Assembly: GCF_054482595.1 (NCBI RefSeq)
Contig: NZ_CM137008.1
DNA length: 64,000 nt
Reading direction: 5' to 3' (one strand)
In this document: positions 10,213 through 60,891 of the stretch, in pieces
How the letters are laid out: the number at the start of each line of letters is the position of its first letter
How positions within the stretch are numbered: position 1 is the stretch's first letter
Program-made: the position numbers and the translations under genes
Notes under the pieces: generated by a model
What the model was told of the DNA's origin: nothing
What the model saw: the letters and a program-made list of their open reading frames with translations, nothing else
The model's database searches: none

Positions 10213-10268
10213 GTACGTCATTGCGGATGCGCTGCTTTAGGGCGGCGCATTTGGCATCGACGCATGAC

Positions 10269-11010
<742 letters not shown>

Positions 11011-11032
11011 GAGATGAAGCGATGTTTTGGCC

Positions 11033-11326
11033 TTACGCGACCTTTTTTGCACGCTCTTCACGGCGTGCCAAATATTCAGCCACTGTTTCAATCCGTCCCA
11101 ATTCTTCCTGGGTACGCATGTTGTTTTCAACTTCCCAAAGATCAACTGCCGCCTGGAGGTTTAGCCAAAAATCGACTGTGGTATCAAAAACTTTCGCCAG
11201 ACGGAATGCCATTTCAGTGGTGAGTTTACGATTATTATTGATCAGTGTACTGACGTTATTACGATGAACATGCAGCAACTCTGCTAACTCATTGATTTTC
11301 AAAGCGAGCGGTTCCAGATTATTCAT
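11033..11326 (-). CDS. ybaQ: XRE/HigA-family HTH DNA-binding protein YbaQ
   Basis: 97-aa ORF with HTH (LHVHRNNVSTLINNNRKLTTEMAFRLAKVF); no toxin-like ORF adjacent. Confidence 0.88.
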   Translation of the reverse strand: MNNLEPLALKINELAELLHVHRNNVSTLINNNRKLTTEMAFRLAKVFDTTVDFWLNLQAAVDLWEVENNMRTQEELGRIETVAEYLARREERAKKVA

Positions 11327-11512
11327 AGAGAAGAATATCTCCGGGTGTCGTCGGTTTTCTTGTTGCCTGTTTCATAGTTTTTAACTGTTGCTTCCCTGTG
11401 AATAGCGATACAAGAACATACTGAATCATACAAACACATTAAACAAGTCCCCAACTCCATTTGCGCCATTCCTCCCCGCGCGCTAGCATGATATTTCACA
11501 AAGGGAGGTCGT

Positions 11513-12307
11513 ATGGATCTGTTGTACCGGGTAAAAACGCTTTGGGCCGCGCTGCGCGGTAATCATTACTCCTGGCCTGCCATCGATATCACCCTCCCCG
11601 GCAATCGCCATTTTCATCTGATTGGCAGTATTCATATGGGTAGCCACGATATGGCTCCCCTGCCCGCCCGTTTGCTCAAAAAGCTCAAAAACGCCGATGC
11701 GCTGATCGTCGAGGCGGATGTTTCCACCAGCGATACGCCTTTTGCTAATTTGCCTGCCTGCGAGGCGCTGGAAGAGCGTATTAGCGAGGAGCAATTACAA
11801 AATCTGCAGCACATTAGCCAGGTGATGGGCATTTCTCCGTCACTCTTTTCTACCCAACCGCTGTGGCAAATCGCGATGGTTCTTCAGGCGACGCAGGCAC
11901 AAAAACTGGGGCTGCGGGCAGAATACGGTATCGATTACCAGTTATTGCAGGCGGCGAAGCAACAACATAAACCCGTGATTGAACTGGAAGGGGCTGAAAA
12001 CCAGATTGCCATGTTGCTCCAGCTCCCTGACAAAGGACTGGCGCTGCTGGACGATACGCTGACCCACTGGCATACCAACGCACGGTTGCTGCAACAAATG
12101 ATGAGCTGGTGGCTGAATGCGCCGCCGCAAAATAATGAAATAACGCTGCCCAATACGTTCAGTCAGTCGCTGTACGATGTGCTGATGCATCAGCGAAATC
12201 TCGCCTGGCGGGATAAATTACGCGCCATGCCGCCGGGGCGATATGTGGTCGCGGTCGGTGCACTACACCTGTATGGAGAAGGGAATTTGCCGCAAATGTT
12301 GCGCTAA
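11513..12307 (+). CDS. ybaP: TraB/GumN-family protein YbaP
   Basis: 264-aa ORF with preceding SD (aaagggaggtcgt ATG); conserved position between ybaQ and ybaK. Confidence 0.88.
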   Translation: MDLLYRVKTLWAALRGNHYSWPAIDITLPGNRHFHLIGSIHMGSHDMAPLPARLLKKLKNADALIVEADVSTSDTPFANLPACEALEERISEEQLQNLQHISQVMGISPSLFSTQPLWQIAMVLQATQAQKLGLRAEYGIDYQLLQAAKQQHKPVIELEGAENQIAMLLQLPDKGLALLDDTLTHWHTNARLLQQMMSWWLNAPPQNNEITLPNTFSQSLYDVLMHQRNLAWRDKLRAMPPGRYVVAVGALHLYGEGNLPQMLR

Positions 12308-12389
12308 AAAAATGGCCAATATCGCTATTGGCCCGTCAAAGAGGAATTTCATTTTTTTATTATTATGCCGTCACTTTAAGCGACGGTGT
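12305..12389 (-). ncRNA. chiX: ChiX (MicM/SroB) Hfq-dependent small RNA
   Basis: Minus strand reads ACACCGTCGCTTAAAGTGACGGCATAATAATAAAAAAATGAAATTCCTCTTTGACGGGCCAATAGCGATATTGGCCATTTTTTT, matching recalled ChiX with its terminator hairpin and U-tract. Confidence 0.85.
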
Positions 12390-12495
12390 AACTCGATTGT
12401 CGCTCAATCTCACCATCCTGCCAATACTCTTAGGCAAGATGACTCTTTTTTTTGGACCGCCATCAGGCGTATGCTTGCTTCGTTTTTTTGTTTAA

Positions 12496-12990
<495 letters not shown>

Positions 12991-12995
12991 GCATT

Positions 12996-13019
12996 GTGCC
13001 GGATGCGAACATCCGGCAC
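12996..13019. terminator. Hairpin between convergent ybaK and ushA
   Basis: Inverted repeat gtgccggatg-cgaac-atccggcac followed by ttt; sits between the two stop codons. Confidence 0.6.
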
Positions 13020-13026
13020 TTTCGGA

Positions 13027-14679
13027 TTACTGCCAGCTCACCTCACCTTTCGGTTCATAAACACTCACATCCAGCGGCGAGCTTTTCTGGATATACGCTT
13101 TCAGCACTTCGGCATCAATAAAGCCGGTATTCACATAGCCCGGTTTGTTATCAAGGCGCGGATAGCCATCACCGCCGGTGGCATTGAAGTTTAATGTCGC
13201 CATACGGTAAGTTTTCGCTGGATCGACCGGTTCGCCTTTGATTTTAAGGTCGTTCAGTTTGCCGTCTTTCGACACAAAGCTAACGTTGGCAAATTGCGGG
13301 TAGGCACCTGAATCTGGCTTCATCTGCGCGACGGCGGTCAGGTAATCAATCACCTCTTTACCGGTCATGTCGGCATACACCACCACATTGCCGAATGGCT
13401 GCACTTTCAGCACGTTTTTATAGCTGATATCGCCTGCTTCGATAGAATCACGAATTCCGCCTCCGCTCATCACCGCAAAGTCGGCACCAGTGCGATCCAT
13501 TTGTGCTGCCAGAATTAACCGCCCCATATTGGTCTGTACAAAACGCACTTTGTCACGATCGCCTTCCAGACGACCATTGGTTTCGCCTATTTTCACTTCC
13601 AGCTGCGCTTTGCCTTTGTTCTGGAACGGTGATAACAGCGAGATCATTTGCTGGTTTTCAGCGATTTCAGGAGTGTAAAGCACGCGCTCGCTTTTCCCGT
13701 CTTCCCAGGTCACTTTCTTCTTCAGGTTCACCGGAATCAGCTGGTAGTTAACCATTTTCATTTCGCCATTACGAAACTCAAAATCAGCCCGTCCCACGTA
13801 TTTGCCCCACTCATGCGCCTGCACAATCCAGATGCCGTTTTGTTGATCTGGTTTGCATGGCGTACCCGGCACGTAATCGACCTGTTTTTTGTTTTCTGCC
13901 GCCATGCAGACCGGATCTTGCGAGTGACCACCGACGATCATCGCCAGCGATCCGGCAGGCAGCGCGCGTGCCATCTCCACATCGCCCGGTGCGTTAGAGC
14001 CGTGCTCACCATTATCGTAATGCCCCATATGGGTCGCCGCGATAATAATGTCTGGCTTTTCTGTCTGTTGCAGCTCCTGAATCACCAGCTTCGCTTCATC
14101 GGCGGGCTTACGAAATTCGACATCAGTGAAGTATTCCGGGTTACCAATTTTTGCTGTGTCATCGGTTGTCAGCCCAATGACGGCAATTTTCAGATCCTGA
14201 CGCTTAAACAGCGCCCACGGTTTAAACAGGCGCTCGCCAGTACTTTTCTGGTAGATATTCGCGGAAAGCAACGGGAACTTGGCCCACTTTTCCTGCTGGC
14301 GTAATACGGTGAGCGGATTATCAAATTCATGATTACCGATCGCCATCGCGTCATAGCCCACCAGATTCATACCGCGAAAATCAGGTTCGGCATCCTGTAA
14401 GTCAGACTCGGGCACGCCAGTGTTAATGTCGCCACCGGAAAGTAGCAGCACGCTACCGCCTTCAGCCGCAACCTCTTTGCGGATACCATCCACCAGCGTT
14501 TTTTGCGCCGCCAGACCATATTCGCCATATTCATTGCGCCAAAAATGCCCATGATGATCATTGGTATGCAGAACTGTAATTTTGTAGGTTTTATCCTGCT
14601 CATACGCCAGAGCAGTTTCACTCGCCAGTGTAAATGTGGTTAACAGCGCTAACGCCACGCCCCGCTGCAATAATTTCAT
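13027..14679 (-). CDS. ushA: Periplasmic UDP-sugar hydrolase / 5'-nucleotidase UshA
   Basis: 550-aa ORF with signal peptide (MKLLQRGVALALLTTFTLASETALA) and metallophosphatase motifs (HTNDHHGH, GNHEFD). Confidence 0.95.
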   Translation of the reverse strand: MKLLQRGVALALLTTFTLASETALAYEQDKTYKITVLHTNDHHGHFWRNEYGEYGLAAQKTLVDGIRKEVAAEGGSVLLLSGGDINTGVPESDLQDAEPDFRGMNLVGYDAMAIGNHEFDNPLTVLRQQEKWAKFPLLSANIYQKSTGERLFKPWALFKRQDLKIAVIGLTTDDTAKIGNPEYFTDVEFRKPADEAKLVIQELQQTEKPDIIIAATHMGHYDNGEHGSNAPGDVEMARALPAGSLAMIVGGHSQDPVCMAAENKKQVDYVPGTPCKPDQQNGIWIVQAHEWGKYVGRADFEFRNGEMKMVNYQLIPVNLKKKVTWEDGKSERVLYTPEIAENQQMISLLSPFQNKGKAQLEVKIGETNGRLEGDRDKVRFVQTNMGRLILAAQMDRTGADFAVMSGGGIRDSIEAGDISYKNVLKVQPFGNVVVYADMTGKEVIDYLTAVAQMKPDSGAYPQFANVSFVSKDGKLNDLKIKGEPVDPAKTYRMATLNFNATGGDGYPRLDNKPGYVNTGFIDAEVLKAYIQKSSPLDVSVYEPKGEVSWQ

Positions 14680-18054: not shown

Positions 18055-18150
18055 ATGAAAAATATGTAGGCATGATAAGACGCGCCAGCGTCGCATCGGG
18101 CATCGAGAGCCAAATGCCAGATGCGGCGTGAACGCCTTATCTGGCCTACG
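18055..18150. repeat. REP pair (single BIME) downstream of ybaL
   Basis: gtaggcatgataagacgcgccagcgtcgcatcgggca and gccagatgcggcgtgaacgccttatctggcctac in inverted orientation. Confidence 0.85.
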
Positions 18151-25569: not shown

Positions 25570-27501
25570 TCAAATGGGGCGGATACTTTCTTCATCCAGC
25601 TCCGCATCGAAGAACCGACGCAGGGTCTGAATATTATTATCCGCAATAATGGACTCGCGCGCCTGCGCAAGTTTTTCTTCGTATATCGCCTGACGCCACT
25701 CCAGCGGCGTACGCACCGCGGGATTATCATCTTCAACGATAGTCAGTTCAACCGTTGAACCTTTTAACGTGCTCAACGCTTCAGCCAGTTTTTGCTGTGC
25801 ACCGCGGTTGTTCAAATGCCGCTGAGAGGAGCGCAAATGCAGACATACTGCGTTGTCGCTCTCCTCTTTCCAGGCATTTAAGGCCACCTGTTCGACCAGT
25901 TTTGGTAGCGAAAGTTGACTCACCTGTGCCGCCCACGCGTCGCGCTCAATGGCTTCTGCCGCCAGCTTCGCCGCCAGTTCCGGCGTTTTTTCATGTTCCA
26001 GCGCTTTTTTCAGCGCCTTCGGCGTGGCGACCACTTCTTTTTGCTGCATCACTGGAGTGGTAGCCTTCCAGCGATACGCTTCTTTTTTGGCTGGCGCTTT
26101 TTCCAGCGCCGATGGCACCGGACGCGCCTGAACGCGATCGGTGACCGAAGCCAGTCTTTCCAGCGCAGCGTTATTCACCGGCCGCGCGCGGGTAGCGGCT
26201 GCCGGTTCACTCTTTTTTGCTTTGGTTGCTCCCTGCACGCGCTGCAACTGCTGGCGCGCCGCCAGCACCTGGCTGGTGGTTTCCGGGAGCGGTACAGTCG
26301 GTGCCTGCTGCGGCGCTGATTGCGGTTGCGGCGGCACCTGGGTTGGCGTCATTACTGCCGTTGGCGCGACGGGCGCAAAGGACTGGCGTGGCACTTCTGG
26401 CTCAGGCAGAGGCATACGTGGATGGAACGCCAGCGCGCGCAGCAGCGTCATCTCAACGCCCATGCGGCGGTCCGGCGCATACGGTAATTCTTTGCGACCA
26501 ATCAACAGCGTCTGATAGTAAAGCTGAATATCCGTCGGCGGTATGGTGCGCGCCAGTTCACGCATCCGCAGCTCAATGGCGGCCATGTCGTTGCCAAGTG
26601 CAGCAGGCGAAAGTTGTACCATCGCAATACGATGCAACAGGCCGAGCATTTCCACCAGCAACGCTTCCCACTCGATACCACGGGCAGCGGCTTCATTAAT
26701 CAGCGCCATTACGCGCTCGCCGTTGGCCTCGACCATCGCTTCAACCAGCGACAGCGCCTGATCGTCGTCAAGCGTACCCAGCATCGCACTGACTGCCTGG
26801 GTTGAAACCTGGCCGTCACCGCTGGCAATCGCCTGGTCGGTCAGACTTAAGGCATCTCGCAGGCTGCCTTCAGCGGCGCGCGCCAGCAATTGCAACGCCC
26901 GCGGCTCGTGAGCGATATGTTCTTCGTTGAGGATGTGCTCAAGTTGATGGCGAATTTGCTCGACATCCAGCGCCTTGAGATGAAATTGCAAACAGCGCGA
27001 CAAAATCGTCACCGGCAATTTCTGTGGATCGGTCGTCGCCAGCAGAAACTTAACGTGCTCCGGCGGCTCTTCAAGGGTTTTTAACAGTGCGTTAAAGCTG
27101 TGGCGCGACAGCATATGCACTTCGTCGATCAGATAAACTTTGAAACGACCACGCGCCGGAGCGTACTGGACGTTATCCAGCAGGTCGCGGGTATCTTCAA
27201 CTTTGGTGCGCGAGGCGGCGTCGATTTCAATCAGATCGACAAAGCGCCCCTGCTCGATTTCACGACAGTTATCGCACACGCCGCACGGCGTCGCGGTAAT
27301 GCCGGTTTCGCAGTTTAGCCCCTTCGCCAGCAGTCGGGCGATAGAGGTTTTTCCGACGCCACGGGTACCGGAAAAAAGATAAGCATGATGAATACGCCCT
27401 AACGACAAGCCGTTCGCCAGTGCGGTCAGCACATGTTCCTGGCCGACGACGTCAGCAAAGGTTTGTGGGCGCCATTTTCGGGCTAAGACCTGATAACTCA
27501 T
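25570..27501 (-). CDS. dnaX: DNA polymerase III subunits tau/gamma
   Basis: 643-aa ORF; AAA+ Walker A GTRGVGKTS, Walker B DEVH, zinc module CGVCDNC. Confidence 0.97.
   Translation of the reverse strand: MSYQVLARKWRPQTFADVVGQEHVLTALANGLSLGRIHHAYLFSGTRGVGKTSIARLLAKGLNCETGITATPCGVCDNCREIEQGRFVDLIEIDAASRTKVEDTRDLLDNVQYAPARGRFKVYLIDEVHMLSRHSFNALLKTLEEPPEHVKFLLATTDPQKLPVTILSRCLQFHLKALDVEQIRHQLEHILNEEHIAHEPRALQLLARAAEGSLRDALSLTDQAIASGDGQVSTQAVSAMLGTLDDDQALSLVEAMVEANGERVMALINEAAARGIEWEALLVEMLGLLHRIAMVQLSPAALGNDMAAIELRMRELARTIPPTDIQLYYQTLLIGRKELPYAPDRRMGVEMTLLRALAFHPRMPLPEPEVPRQSFAPVAPTAVMTPTQVPPQPQSAPQQAPTVPLPETTSQVLAARQQLQRVQGATKAKKSEPAAATRARPVNNAALERLASVTDRVQARPVPSALEKAPAKKEAYRWKATTPVMQQKEVVATPKALKKALEHEKTPELAAKLAAEAIERDAWAAQVSQLSLPKLVEQVALNAWKEESDNAVCLHLRSSQRHLNNRGAQQKLAEALSTLKGSTVELTIVEDDNPAVRTPLEWRQAIYEEKLAQARESIIADNNIQTLRRFFDAELDEESIRPI
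26205..26218 (-). other. dnaX: dnaX programmed -1 frameshift site that yields gamma
   Basis: Minus strand reads GCA AAA AAG AGU GAA: heptamer A_AAA_AAG in frame (..ATKAKKSEP..), with UGA in the -1 frame directly after. Confidence 0.9.
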
Positions 27502-43030: not shown

Positions 43031-43144
43031 GGGTGGGGGCCCTGCCAGCTACATCCCGGCACACGCGTCATCTGCCTTGGCTGCTTCCTTCCGGACCTGA
43101 CCTGGTAAACAGAGTAGCGTTGCGGGAGAACCAACAGAGCCCCC
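43031..43144 (-). ncRNA. ffs: 4.5S RNA (signal recognition particle RNA)
   Basis: Minus strand reads GGGGGCUCUGUUGGUUCUCCCGCAACGCUACUCUGUUUACCAGGUCAGGUCCGGAAGGAAGCAGCCAAGGCAGAUGACGCGUGUGCCGGGAUGUAGCUGGCAGGGCCCCCACCC; ends +/-1 nt. Confidence 0.95.
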
Positions 43145-60704: not shown

Positions 60705-60787
60705 AGAGCTCTCTCTTAGTTTAATTTCCGCCAGGTAATCAGATGACACGACTGTGCTTCACGCCATCTATTAACATGTACGTCAGT

Positions 60788-60816
60788 ATATGGGGATGTT
60801 TCCCCCACATTCAACG
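60788..60816 (-). promoter_or_regulatory. Sigma-32 heat-shock promoter of lon
   Basis: Minus strand GCGTTGAATGTGGGGGAAACATCCCCATATACTGACG: TTGAA (-35) and CCCCATAT (-10). Confidence 0.8.
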
Positions 60817-60864
60817 CCGAGAATAGAGGAAAAATTAAAGGGGAGATAAAATCCCCCCTTTTTG
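60808..60864 (+). ncRNA. Candidate small RNA in the clpX-lon spacer (possibly SraA), ending at a plus-strand terminator
   Basis: Plus-strand hairpin aaaggggagataaaatcccccc followed by tttttgg at 60836-60864; position matches my recollection of sraA in the clpX-lon intergenic region, antisense to the lon promoter. Confidence 0.35.
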
Positions 60865-60891
60865 GTTAACTAATTGTATGGGAATGGTTAA

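Follow-up and report, generated by a model that had tools for sequence, protein, structure and literature searches.

The window analysed here, a stretch of 64,000 nt (contig NZ_CM137008.1 of assembly GCF_054482595.1, with position 1 as its first letter), carries the small RNA gene chiX on the minus strand between two protein-coding genes of the plus strand, ybaP and ybaK, and the 3′ end of the small RNA meets the stop codon of ybaP. The genes and elements of this locus are the following:

11513..12307, plus strand: ybaP, encoding a TraB/GumN family protein of 264 aa (ORF list; annotation of an identical genome and of K-12)
12305–12307, plus strand: TAA stop codon of ybaP, convergent with ChiX (ORF list)
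12306..12389, minus strand: ChiX (SroB/MicM/RybC), 84 nt, start at 12389 and 3′ end at 12306 (RF00368, K-12 identity, K-12 Term-seq)
12306..12312, minus strand: U7 tail of ChiX, preceded by an A at 12313 (sequence; Term-seq 3′ end)
12314..12333, minus strand: terminator stem-loop of ChiX, GGCCAAUA / GCGA / UAUUGGCC, 8 bp (terminator scan, minus strand only)
12334..12345, minus strand: seed UCCUCUUUGACG, ChiX nt 45–56 (complement of chiP; most conserved part of the Rfam consensus)
12353..12364, minus strand: A-rich linker of four consecutive ARN triplets, ChiX nt 26–37 (triplet count)
12368..12386, minus strand: 5′ stem-loop, ChiX nt 4–22, 8 bp and a 3-nt loop (minimum-energy and centroid folds)
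12396..12401, minus strand: putative −10 hexamer GACAAT, 6 nt upstream of the start at 12389 (consensus scan)
12419..12424, minus strand: putative −35 hexamer TTGGCA (consensus scan; conserved across Enterobacteriaceae in the alignment)
12511..12990, plus strand: ybaK, encoding a Cys-tRNA(Pro)/Cys-tRNA(Cys) deacylase, divergent from the ChiX promoter (ORF list and annotation)
13027..14679, minus strand: a 550-codon ORF (ORF list)

The original prediction had placed ChiX on the minus strand of the ybaP-ybaK spacer, and alignment to the corresponding Rfam family confirmed the identity of the RNA, its strand and its location. RF00368 (sroB) matches 12306..12389 on the minus strand with 82.1 bits against a gathering score of 44, over model positions 1–83 of 83 and without truncation (E = 1.8e-10 for the 64-kb window against 4227 Rfam families), and it is the sole Rfam family with E ≤ 1 within 12200–12520. 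The segment 12250–12530 of the window is identical to E. coli K-12 MG1655 in 281 of 281 aligned bases, with chiX (b4585), its promoter and both flanks included; in the K-12 annotation (K-12 position = 519593 − window position), the “small regulatory RNA ChiX” (b4585) occupies 507204..507287 (plus) and ybaP occupies 507286..508080 (minus), in agreement with the Rfam match. SroB, RybC, MicM and ChiX are synonyms for one RNA between ybaK and ybaP (table in PMC3384567), and this position of ChiX is also given in PMC4355480 and PMC3384567. Of 5426 complete E. coli genomes, 5422 carry exactly one copy of ChiX with its promoter (135 nt), at least 99% identical in 5213 of them, and the stretch around it matches many complete genomes of the species at 100% identity; in these, ybaP, ybaK and ushA are annotated. 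There was no evidence that contradicted the identity of ChiX, and its identity in sequence to the K-12 gene argues that it would be expressed in this strain as well.

The plus strand between 12300 and 12395 reads ...TGCGC TAA AAAAA T GGCCAATA TCGC TATTGGCC CGTCAAAGAGGAATTTCATTTTTTTATTATTATGCCGTCACTTTAAGCGACGGTGT... The 84-nt RNA of the opposite strand folds with −24.1 kcal/mol (z = −3.9 against dinucleotide shuffles), and its seed is unpaired in the centroid fold. This seed is perfectly complementary, over all 12 nt, to CGUCAAAGAGGA in the leader of K-12 chiP, a stretch that ends 7 nt before the AUG, and a run of this length was reached by only 2 of 1000 shuffles. The sequence features of class II sRNAs, namely the U7 tail and four consecutive ARN triplets, are present in ChiX, and the motif ATAA..A..AA within the linker is conserved in the alignment. 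The ARN linker is a putative Hfq distal-face site, as in class II sRNAs generally. Upstream of the RNA, the combination of TTGGCA, a 17-nt spacer and GACAAT was the sole promoter-like match of the consensus scan in 11400–13100, and the block TTG-AGCGACAAT was nearly invariant in the Enterobacteriaceae of the alignment; this element probably functions as a sigma-70-type promoter in the strain studied, which would place the start of ChiX at 12389.

What is known of the expression of ChiX, its 3′ end, its binding to Hfq and its regulatory circuit comes from published work on K-12, where the sequence is the same. The discrete minus-strand transcript expected from the original prediction is documented there, with a dominant Term-seq 3′ end at 507287 (plus) in all three growth conditions (445,279, 552,306 and 955,394 reads); Adams et al. 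(2021, Supplementary file 1, PMC7815308) assign this end to chiX as “primary” and to ybaP as “antisense”. ChiX is the dominant partner in Hfq RIL-seq of K-12, according to PMC10954441 and to a 2025 RIL-seq preprint, among whose listed pairs chiP.5UTR/chiZ-chiX is one of the top ones, with 56,797 chimeras. At the same time, the termination of ChiX is incomplete, since a Rho termination region lies antisense inside ybaP, at K-12 position 507468 (plus), approximately 12125 in the window (Adams et al. 2021, Supplementary file 2, PMC7815308). The upstream and downstream reads of this region were 1492 and 22 without treatment and 2100 and 115 with bicyclomycin, corresponding to a Rho score of 3.7 (p = 4e-10; PMC7815308). 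An RNA named “ybaP.AS”, located at 507307–507377 (plus), or 12216–12286 in the window, was found in chimeras with ArcZ in the 2025 preprint (23 chimeras, odds ratio 51). These data outline one further feature:

12125..12305, minus strand: ChiX read-through tract, antisense in ybaP (Rho region and Hfq-bound “ybaP.AS”)

The longest run of pairing between ArcZ and this tract was 7 nt, a length matched by 28% of shuffles. The SMRT-Cappable-seq operon tables (PMC6131387) contained no entries for ybaP, ybaK or chiX.

The overlap between ChiX and ybaP amounts to 2 nt (12306–12307), the AA of the TAA being the last two U of the tail; as the 3′ end mapped in K-12 corresponds to 12306 of the window, the two genes share exactly these two positions. 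The sequence, the K-12 annotation and the Term-seq 3′ end thus agree with the earlier claim that the U-tract overlaps the ybaP stop codon, and the location given for it stood, although the RNA ends at 12306 and not at 12305, and the hairpin reaches 12333 and not 12330. Since the published K-12 annotation and 3′-end table contain the same overlap, it was already on record; both ChiX and its 2-nt overlap with ybaP are known features of the K-12 annotation.

The conservation of this arrangement was followed by scanning one genome per species for AAATTCCTCTTTGACNGGCC, which yielded at least 120 loci, one of them an evident chance match in a “Lindowbacteria” MAG. Note that the scan pattern demanded an exact seed followed by GGCC, so that the comparative sample is biased. 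The loci listed span Enterobacteriaceae, Yersiniaceae, Erwiniaceae, Hafniaceae and Morganellaceae, and the five outlier loci that were checked all gave an RF00368 match above the gathering score. YbaP could be placed by tblastn in 116 informative loci among those listed, with the window counted, and these displayed ybaK-chiX-ybaP synteny. The exact 2-nt overlap, with the TAA in the U-tract, was found in at least 88 of the 116 loci listed (63 Enterobacteriaceae, 21 Yersiniaceae, 3 Erwiniaceae and one MAG). Among the same 116, a 1-nt overlap with a TGA stop was found in at least four (Pantoea), a 17-nt overlap that places the stop codon in the hairpin arm in at least four (Kosakonia, Phytobacter diazotrophicus and two other Enterobacteriaceae), and an 87-nt overlap in at least one (Phytobacter massiliensis). 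In at least 19 of the 116 loci listed, the genes lie 3–230 nt apart (Buttiauxella, Pantoea/Erwinia, Rouxiella, Hafnia, some Yersinia, Rahnella, Pluralibacter and Superficieibacter), and in Proteus ChiX is not located beside ybaP (PMC4355480). To judge from these sequences, the ChiX/ybaP overlap is old and common, yet dispensable, as the arrangements vary across the loci listed and the overlap is lost in some clades.

The structure of the RNA was conserved in the same sample. In 40 representatives, 99.1% of the cells of the terminator helix were paired, against 23–52% in slid-partner controls, and three pairs showed compensatory changes on both sides; the GGCC arm of the helix was preset by the search pattern and is therefore uninformative for covariation. 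The 5′ hairpin, which was judged by folding each sequence separately because the MAFFT alignment was out of register there, folded in all 69 distinct sequence versions from other species (mean z = −3.4). It is thus extremely improbable that the spacer contains no gene but a chance hairpin followed by a T-run. Terminator-like sites are generally frequent, with 2.2 of them expected in the 1.7-kb region scanned, but such an explanation is refuted by the covariance-model score, by the covariation and by a K-12 gene of identical sequence that has been annotated and mapped in experiments, and is also contradicted by the conservation of the 5′ hairpin and by the 12-nt complement between seed and chiP.

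Taken together, we read 12306..12389 (minus) as chiX, an 84-nt sRNA gene whose overlap with the ybaP stop codon is neutral compact packing, and assign a probability of about 0.96 to this joint reading. The 2-nt overlap is probably a matter of dense gene arrangement and not a separate device, and in our reading it persists because the U-tail and the C-terminus of YbaP are both constrained. Alternatively, selection for coupling could explain why 76% of the loci, across three families, retain an overlap of exactly 2 nt.

The anatomy described above and the seed-chiP complementarity found here fit the following course of events. The sigma-70-type promoter would drive an 84-nt RNA in which a 5′ stem-loop is followed by the ARN linker, the single-stranded seed of 12 nt and the Rho-independent terminator. 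In established ChiX work, Hfq is bound by the U-tail together with the A-rich linker, and the seed pairs with the ribosome-binding site of chiP (ybfM), by which the chitoporin is silenced. When chitosugars are present, decoy RNAs from the chbBC intergenic region and ChiZ titrate ChiX. ChiX has been described as a constitutive, Hfq-dependent RNA that pairs with the chiP/ybfM leader and silences the chitoporin, and that is countered by the chbBC intergenic RNA and ChiZ (PMC7815308, PMC4355480).

A further suggestion of the original prediction, that the ChiX hairpin may also terminate ybaP transcripts, was not supported as far as a canonical bidirectional intrinsic terminator is concerned, as the ybaP strand has no U-tract. 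Past the hairpin, this strand continues with CGTCAAAGAGG, whose first 8 nt contain a single T, as is also true of each of the 78 distinct versions, against 5–8 T over the same distance on the ChiX strand; a U-tract is hardly possible on the ybaP strand because these bases are complementary to the ChiX seed. The terminator scan called the hairpin site on the minus strand and not on the plus strand, and the hairpin has approximately −11 kcal/mol on the ybaP strand. As a canonical terminator of ybaP farther downstream, the spacer offers a single plus-strand candidate, at 12464–12477 with an adjoining T-run, which has a 5-bp stem that includes a G-U pair and was set aside. One ybaP-sense RNA that bears on this question was obtained from Hfq-CLASH data, where it forms a single half-read assigned to “ybaP” (Iosub et al. 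2020, supplementary file 8), mapped here to the plus strand:

12273..12342, plus strand: ybaP-sense fragment that runs from the last part of the CDS across the stop codon and the complete hairpin into 9 nt of anti-seed (one Hfq-CLASH hybrid)

Because this fragment spans the hairpin, at least some ybaP RNA includes it; the end of this single read, 9 nt past the stem, fits a hairpin-linked 3′ end or simple trimming.

By analogy with other convergent genes, a collision- or pause-type stop for ybaP is conceivable. The ChiX hairpin would then end most ybaP transcripts in a non-canonical manner and insulate ybaK from ybaP: the polymerase would pause at the hairpin and be stopped by head-on collision with the traffic from the ChiX promoter or, in a variant of this mechanism, 3′ exonucleases would trim the ybaP RNA back to the hairpin. 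Such a mechanism is favoured by the exact overlap of the convergent transcription units at a stable hairpin, by the very high transcription of ChiX seen in K-12 Term-seq, by the position at which the CLASH fragment stops and by the neighbouring ushA gene, whose Term-seq 3′ end lies 5 nt past a hairpin that lacks a U-tract and abuts the ybaK stop codon. A model for hairpin-centred bidirectional terminators of E. coli that differ from intrinsic ones, in which hairpin pausing is combined with head-on and trailing polymerase collisions at convergent pairs and no U-tract is needed, has been described (Wang et al., bioRxiv 10.1101/2022.10.23.513370). We nevertheless regard a shared terminator of this kind as a tentative possibility that is more doubtful than probable, given the single T in 8 nt on the ybaP strand, the non-significant plus-strand fold of 12280–12400 (z = −1.8) and the origin of the CLASH support in one read with a possibly trimmed end. 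Moreover, in the curated K-12 Term-seq lists no 3′ end of ybaP sense falls at 5070xx–5072xx, which is a weak negative as ybaP may be too weakly expressed, the K-12 minus-strand RIL-seq signal discussed below, if real, reaches 507215, well past the hairpin, and the separation of the two genes in at least 19 of the 116 loci listed indicates that coupling is dispensable.

The opposite possibility, that ybaP and ybaK are at least partly co-transcribed across chiX, would yield an RNA perfectly complementary to ChiX, and the ybaP 3′UTR or intercistronic RNA could act as a cis-encoded anti-ChiX sponge or be cleaved as a duplex. The content of the CLASH fragment, with the CDS end, hairpin and 9 nt of anti-seed, would agree with this, as would the RNA “ybaP.EST3UTR” of K-12 (507215–507289, minus strand, that is, ybaP-sense and anti-ChiX), for which many Hfq RIL-seq chimeras were reported, among them 540 with ArcZ and up to 3391 with SdsR (McQuail et al. 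2023, PMC10954441). The consensus scan of 11400–13100 found no promoter-like site for ybaK on the plus strand, although this is a weak negative, and in Proteus cibi, where ChiX is found at another place, 35 nt separate ybaP from ybaK, in line with an ancestral operon. However, the authors of PMC10954441 themselves treated ybaP.EST3UTR as ChiX; its signal is approximately 0.2% of that of ChiX, with borders that match ChiX, as those of a ChiX-templated artefact would. It is also absent among the table entries examined from the independent 2025 RIL-seq preprint, and Term-seq gave no anti-ChiX 3′ end. A sponge effect is unlikely, as ybaP mRNA would be vastly outnumbered by ChiX. These points make read-through across chiX improbable, and they point toward a ChiX-templated artefact or a duplex-protected fragment as the source of the ybaP.EST3UTR signal. 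Mis-mapping through the near-palindromic hairpin was rejected as a source of the minus-strand RIL-seq signal, since a hand comparison gave about 6 mismatches per 25-mer, flanks included. RNAduplex energies for the pairing of ArcZ and SdsR reached significance neither with ChiX nor with the anti-ChiX strand (z from −1.4 to +0.6), and the longest Watson-Crick runs were matches of A-runs with the U-tail only. As a separate observation, the CLASH read shows that some ybaP-sense RNA spanning the hairpin does exist, and in this respect it points to a real ybaP.EST3UTR RNA. A combined view, in which the position of the terminator on the stop codon is functional, with ChiX transcription and the hairpin insulating ybaK from the ancestral operon and with leaked, Hfq-associated ybaP RNA, perfectly complementary to ChiX, tying ybaP to the ChiX pool, would be quite improbable. 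Neutral packing of chiX against the end of ybaP is the reading that we retain.

The discovery value of this locus is small, as ChiX has been studied since 2003–2009. At the same time, the PGAP annotation of a 100%-identical genome and eight further records contain only ybaP here and no chiX feature, so that ORF-based inspection of E. coli genomes overlooks an sRNA that is among the most abundant ones bound by Hfq. In practice, deletion or tagging of the 3′ end of ybaP will damage the terminator and U-tail of ChiX and could derepress chiP and disturb Hfq occupancy. Additionally, the end of the ybaP transcript offers a small test case for the collision model of bidirectional termination.

Compared with K-12 ChiX (b4585), the gene, promoter, flanks, neighbours, 2-nt ybaP overlap and seed-chiP complementarity are all the same in the window, and only the wider locus differs, by a longer REP array and a frameshifted ybaQ. 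With the chbBC and ChiZ decoys of ChiX, a ybaP read-through RNA would have in common that it carries GUCAAAGAGGA, complementary to the ChiX seed; these decoys, however, are trans-encoded, inducible and experimentally validated, whereas for an anti-ChiX RNA from ybaP there are hints from the RIL-seq and CLASH data. Bidirectional terminators between convergent E. coli genes are reportedly compiled in a SEnd-seq list by Ju et al. from 2019, and a full-text literature search for bidirectional terminators together with ChiX found nothing. The collision-type bidirectional terminators (Wang 2022) resemble ChiX/ybaP in that convergent units, one of them highly expressed, meet at one hairpin; they differ from it in that only the ChiX-side 3′ end is mapped here, the ChiX side being a perfectly canonical intrinsic terminator and the ybaP side having no U-tract.

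The closest architectural counterpart is arcZ/arcB of E. coli K-12, where arcZ (3350577..3350697, plus) and arcB (from 3350689, minus) overlap by 9 nt. Like ChiX, ArcZ is an Hfq-dependent sRNA with a terminator end that reaches into the 3′ end of a protein gene convergent with it, so the ChiX/ybaP arrangement is not unique; ArcZ belongs to another sRNA family and its overlap is larger. ArcZ is processed and is regulated by ArcA/ArcB. ChiX, in contrast to ArcZ, has been described as constitutive (PMC4355480).

All the PGAP-annotated E. coli records examined that match window positions 12306-12389 (H1 and H11-H18) list only ybaP there and carry no chiX feature; among the records examined, chiX was annotated solely in the curated K-12 record. 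The Rfam scan also returned four matches elsewhere in the window, as follows.

26173-26237, minus strand: dnaX frameshift element (96.8 bits)
43040-43136, minus strand: 4.5S/SRP RNA (68.1 bits)
60776-60871, plus strand: sraA (106.7 bits)
18069-18146, minus strand: an isolated naRNA4/REP unit (69 bits)

Transcripts reading through the ChiX terminator enter ybaP in the antisense direction (window 12125-12305, minus strand), and a Rho termination region has been mapped to K-12 507468 (Adams et al. 2021, PMC7815308). An Hfq-bound RNA designated ybaP.AS (K-12 507307-507377) has been described as forming chimeras with ArcZ in a 2025 RIL-seq preprint; pairing of ArcZ with this read-through tract did not reach significance in the pairing test. 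On the strand antisense to ChiX, a feature labelled ybaP.EST3UTR (window 12304-12378, plus strand) yielded abundant chimeras in one RIL-seq study, which renamed them ChiX (McQuail et al. 2023, PMC10954441). This signal may come from a genuine RNA antisense to ChiX or may be artefactual.

The arrangement of ChiX and ybaP differs in some other species. In Phytobacter massiliensis (L026:824-910), the ybaP TAA within the U-tract is gone, with TTG replacing TTA, and the ybaP frame extends antisense across the entire ChiX gene, giving an 87-nt overlap and ending a short distance 5' of the ChiX start. The ChiX sequence nevertheless retains a score of 75.9 bits for RF00368. In Proteus cibi (L091) and P. 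faecis (L065), ChiX was found at 58-66 bits outside the ybaP-ybaK interval; in P. cibi, ybaP and ybaK are neighbours separated by 35 nt, and ChiX lies approximately 2.3 kb away. The move of Proteus ChiX to a site beside copA has already been published (PMC4355480). In the multiple alignment of the ChiX loci (A2), the 5' hairpin seen in enterobacterial ChiX is missing from the Proteus RNA, and a TATAAT box lies shortly ahead of the seed.

Columns 1-45 of the same alignment contain a conserved block, AAAAAA-TAGTAnnATCTTGCGCAATAGTATTGGCAG, located 5' of the ChiX -35 hexamer and common to Enterobacteriaceae, from which E. coli partly departs.

12425-12451, minus strand: conserved block upstream of ChiX

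The block includes a TAGTA direct repeat and could be a UP element, a regulator site or a divergent ybaK promoter.

Directly beside the ChiX case, the convergent ushA and ybaK genes are separated by 36 nt (window 12991-13026), and K-12 Term-seq places the ushA 3' end at 506602, corresponding to window position 12991 (PMC7815308). The hairpin GTGCCGGATGTTTGCATCCGGCAC, which has no U-tract and adjoins the ybaK stop, sits 5 nt before this 3' end and looks like a non-canonical terminator, possibly common to both genes.

On the other side of ybaP, two features were distinguished.

10324-11007: tandem array of seven naRNA4/REP units (RF02564) within the copA-ybaQ spacer (10213-11032)
11033-11375, minus strand: ybaQ, a HigA-family antitoxin-like regulator

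The units repeat with a period of 101-102 nt, and the spacer is approximately 820 nt long, compared to approximately 315 nt in K-12, so the array is about five units larger in this strain. In a genome with the same sequence over this region, the annotation gives ybaQ as a pseudogene with a frameshift; the intact ybaQ ORF in the window comprises 97 aa, and the K-12 CDS is 342 nt (113 codons).

The K-12 arcZ locus (3350577-3350697), which lies outside the window, resembles the ChiX/ybaP arrangement in that the sRNA terminator overlaps the end of a convergent CDS: arcZ shares 9 nt with the 3' end of arcB, and sRNA terminators placed over convergent CDS ends are thus recurrent in E. coli.
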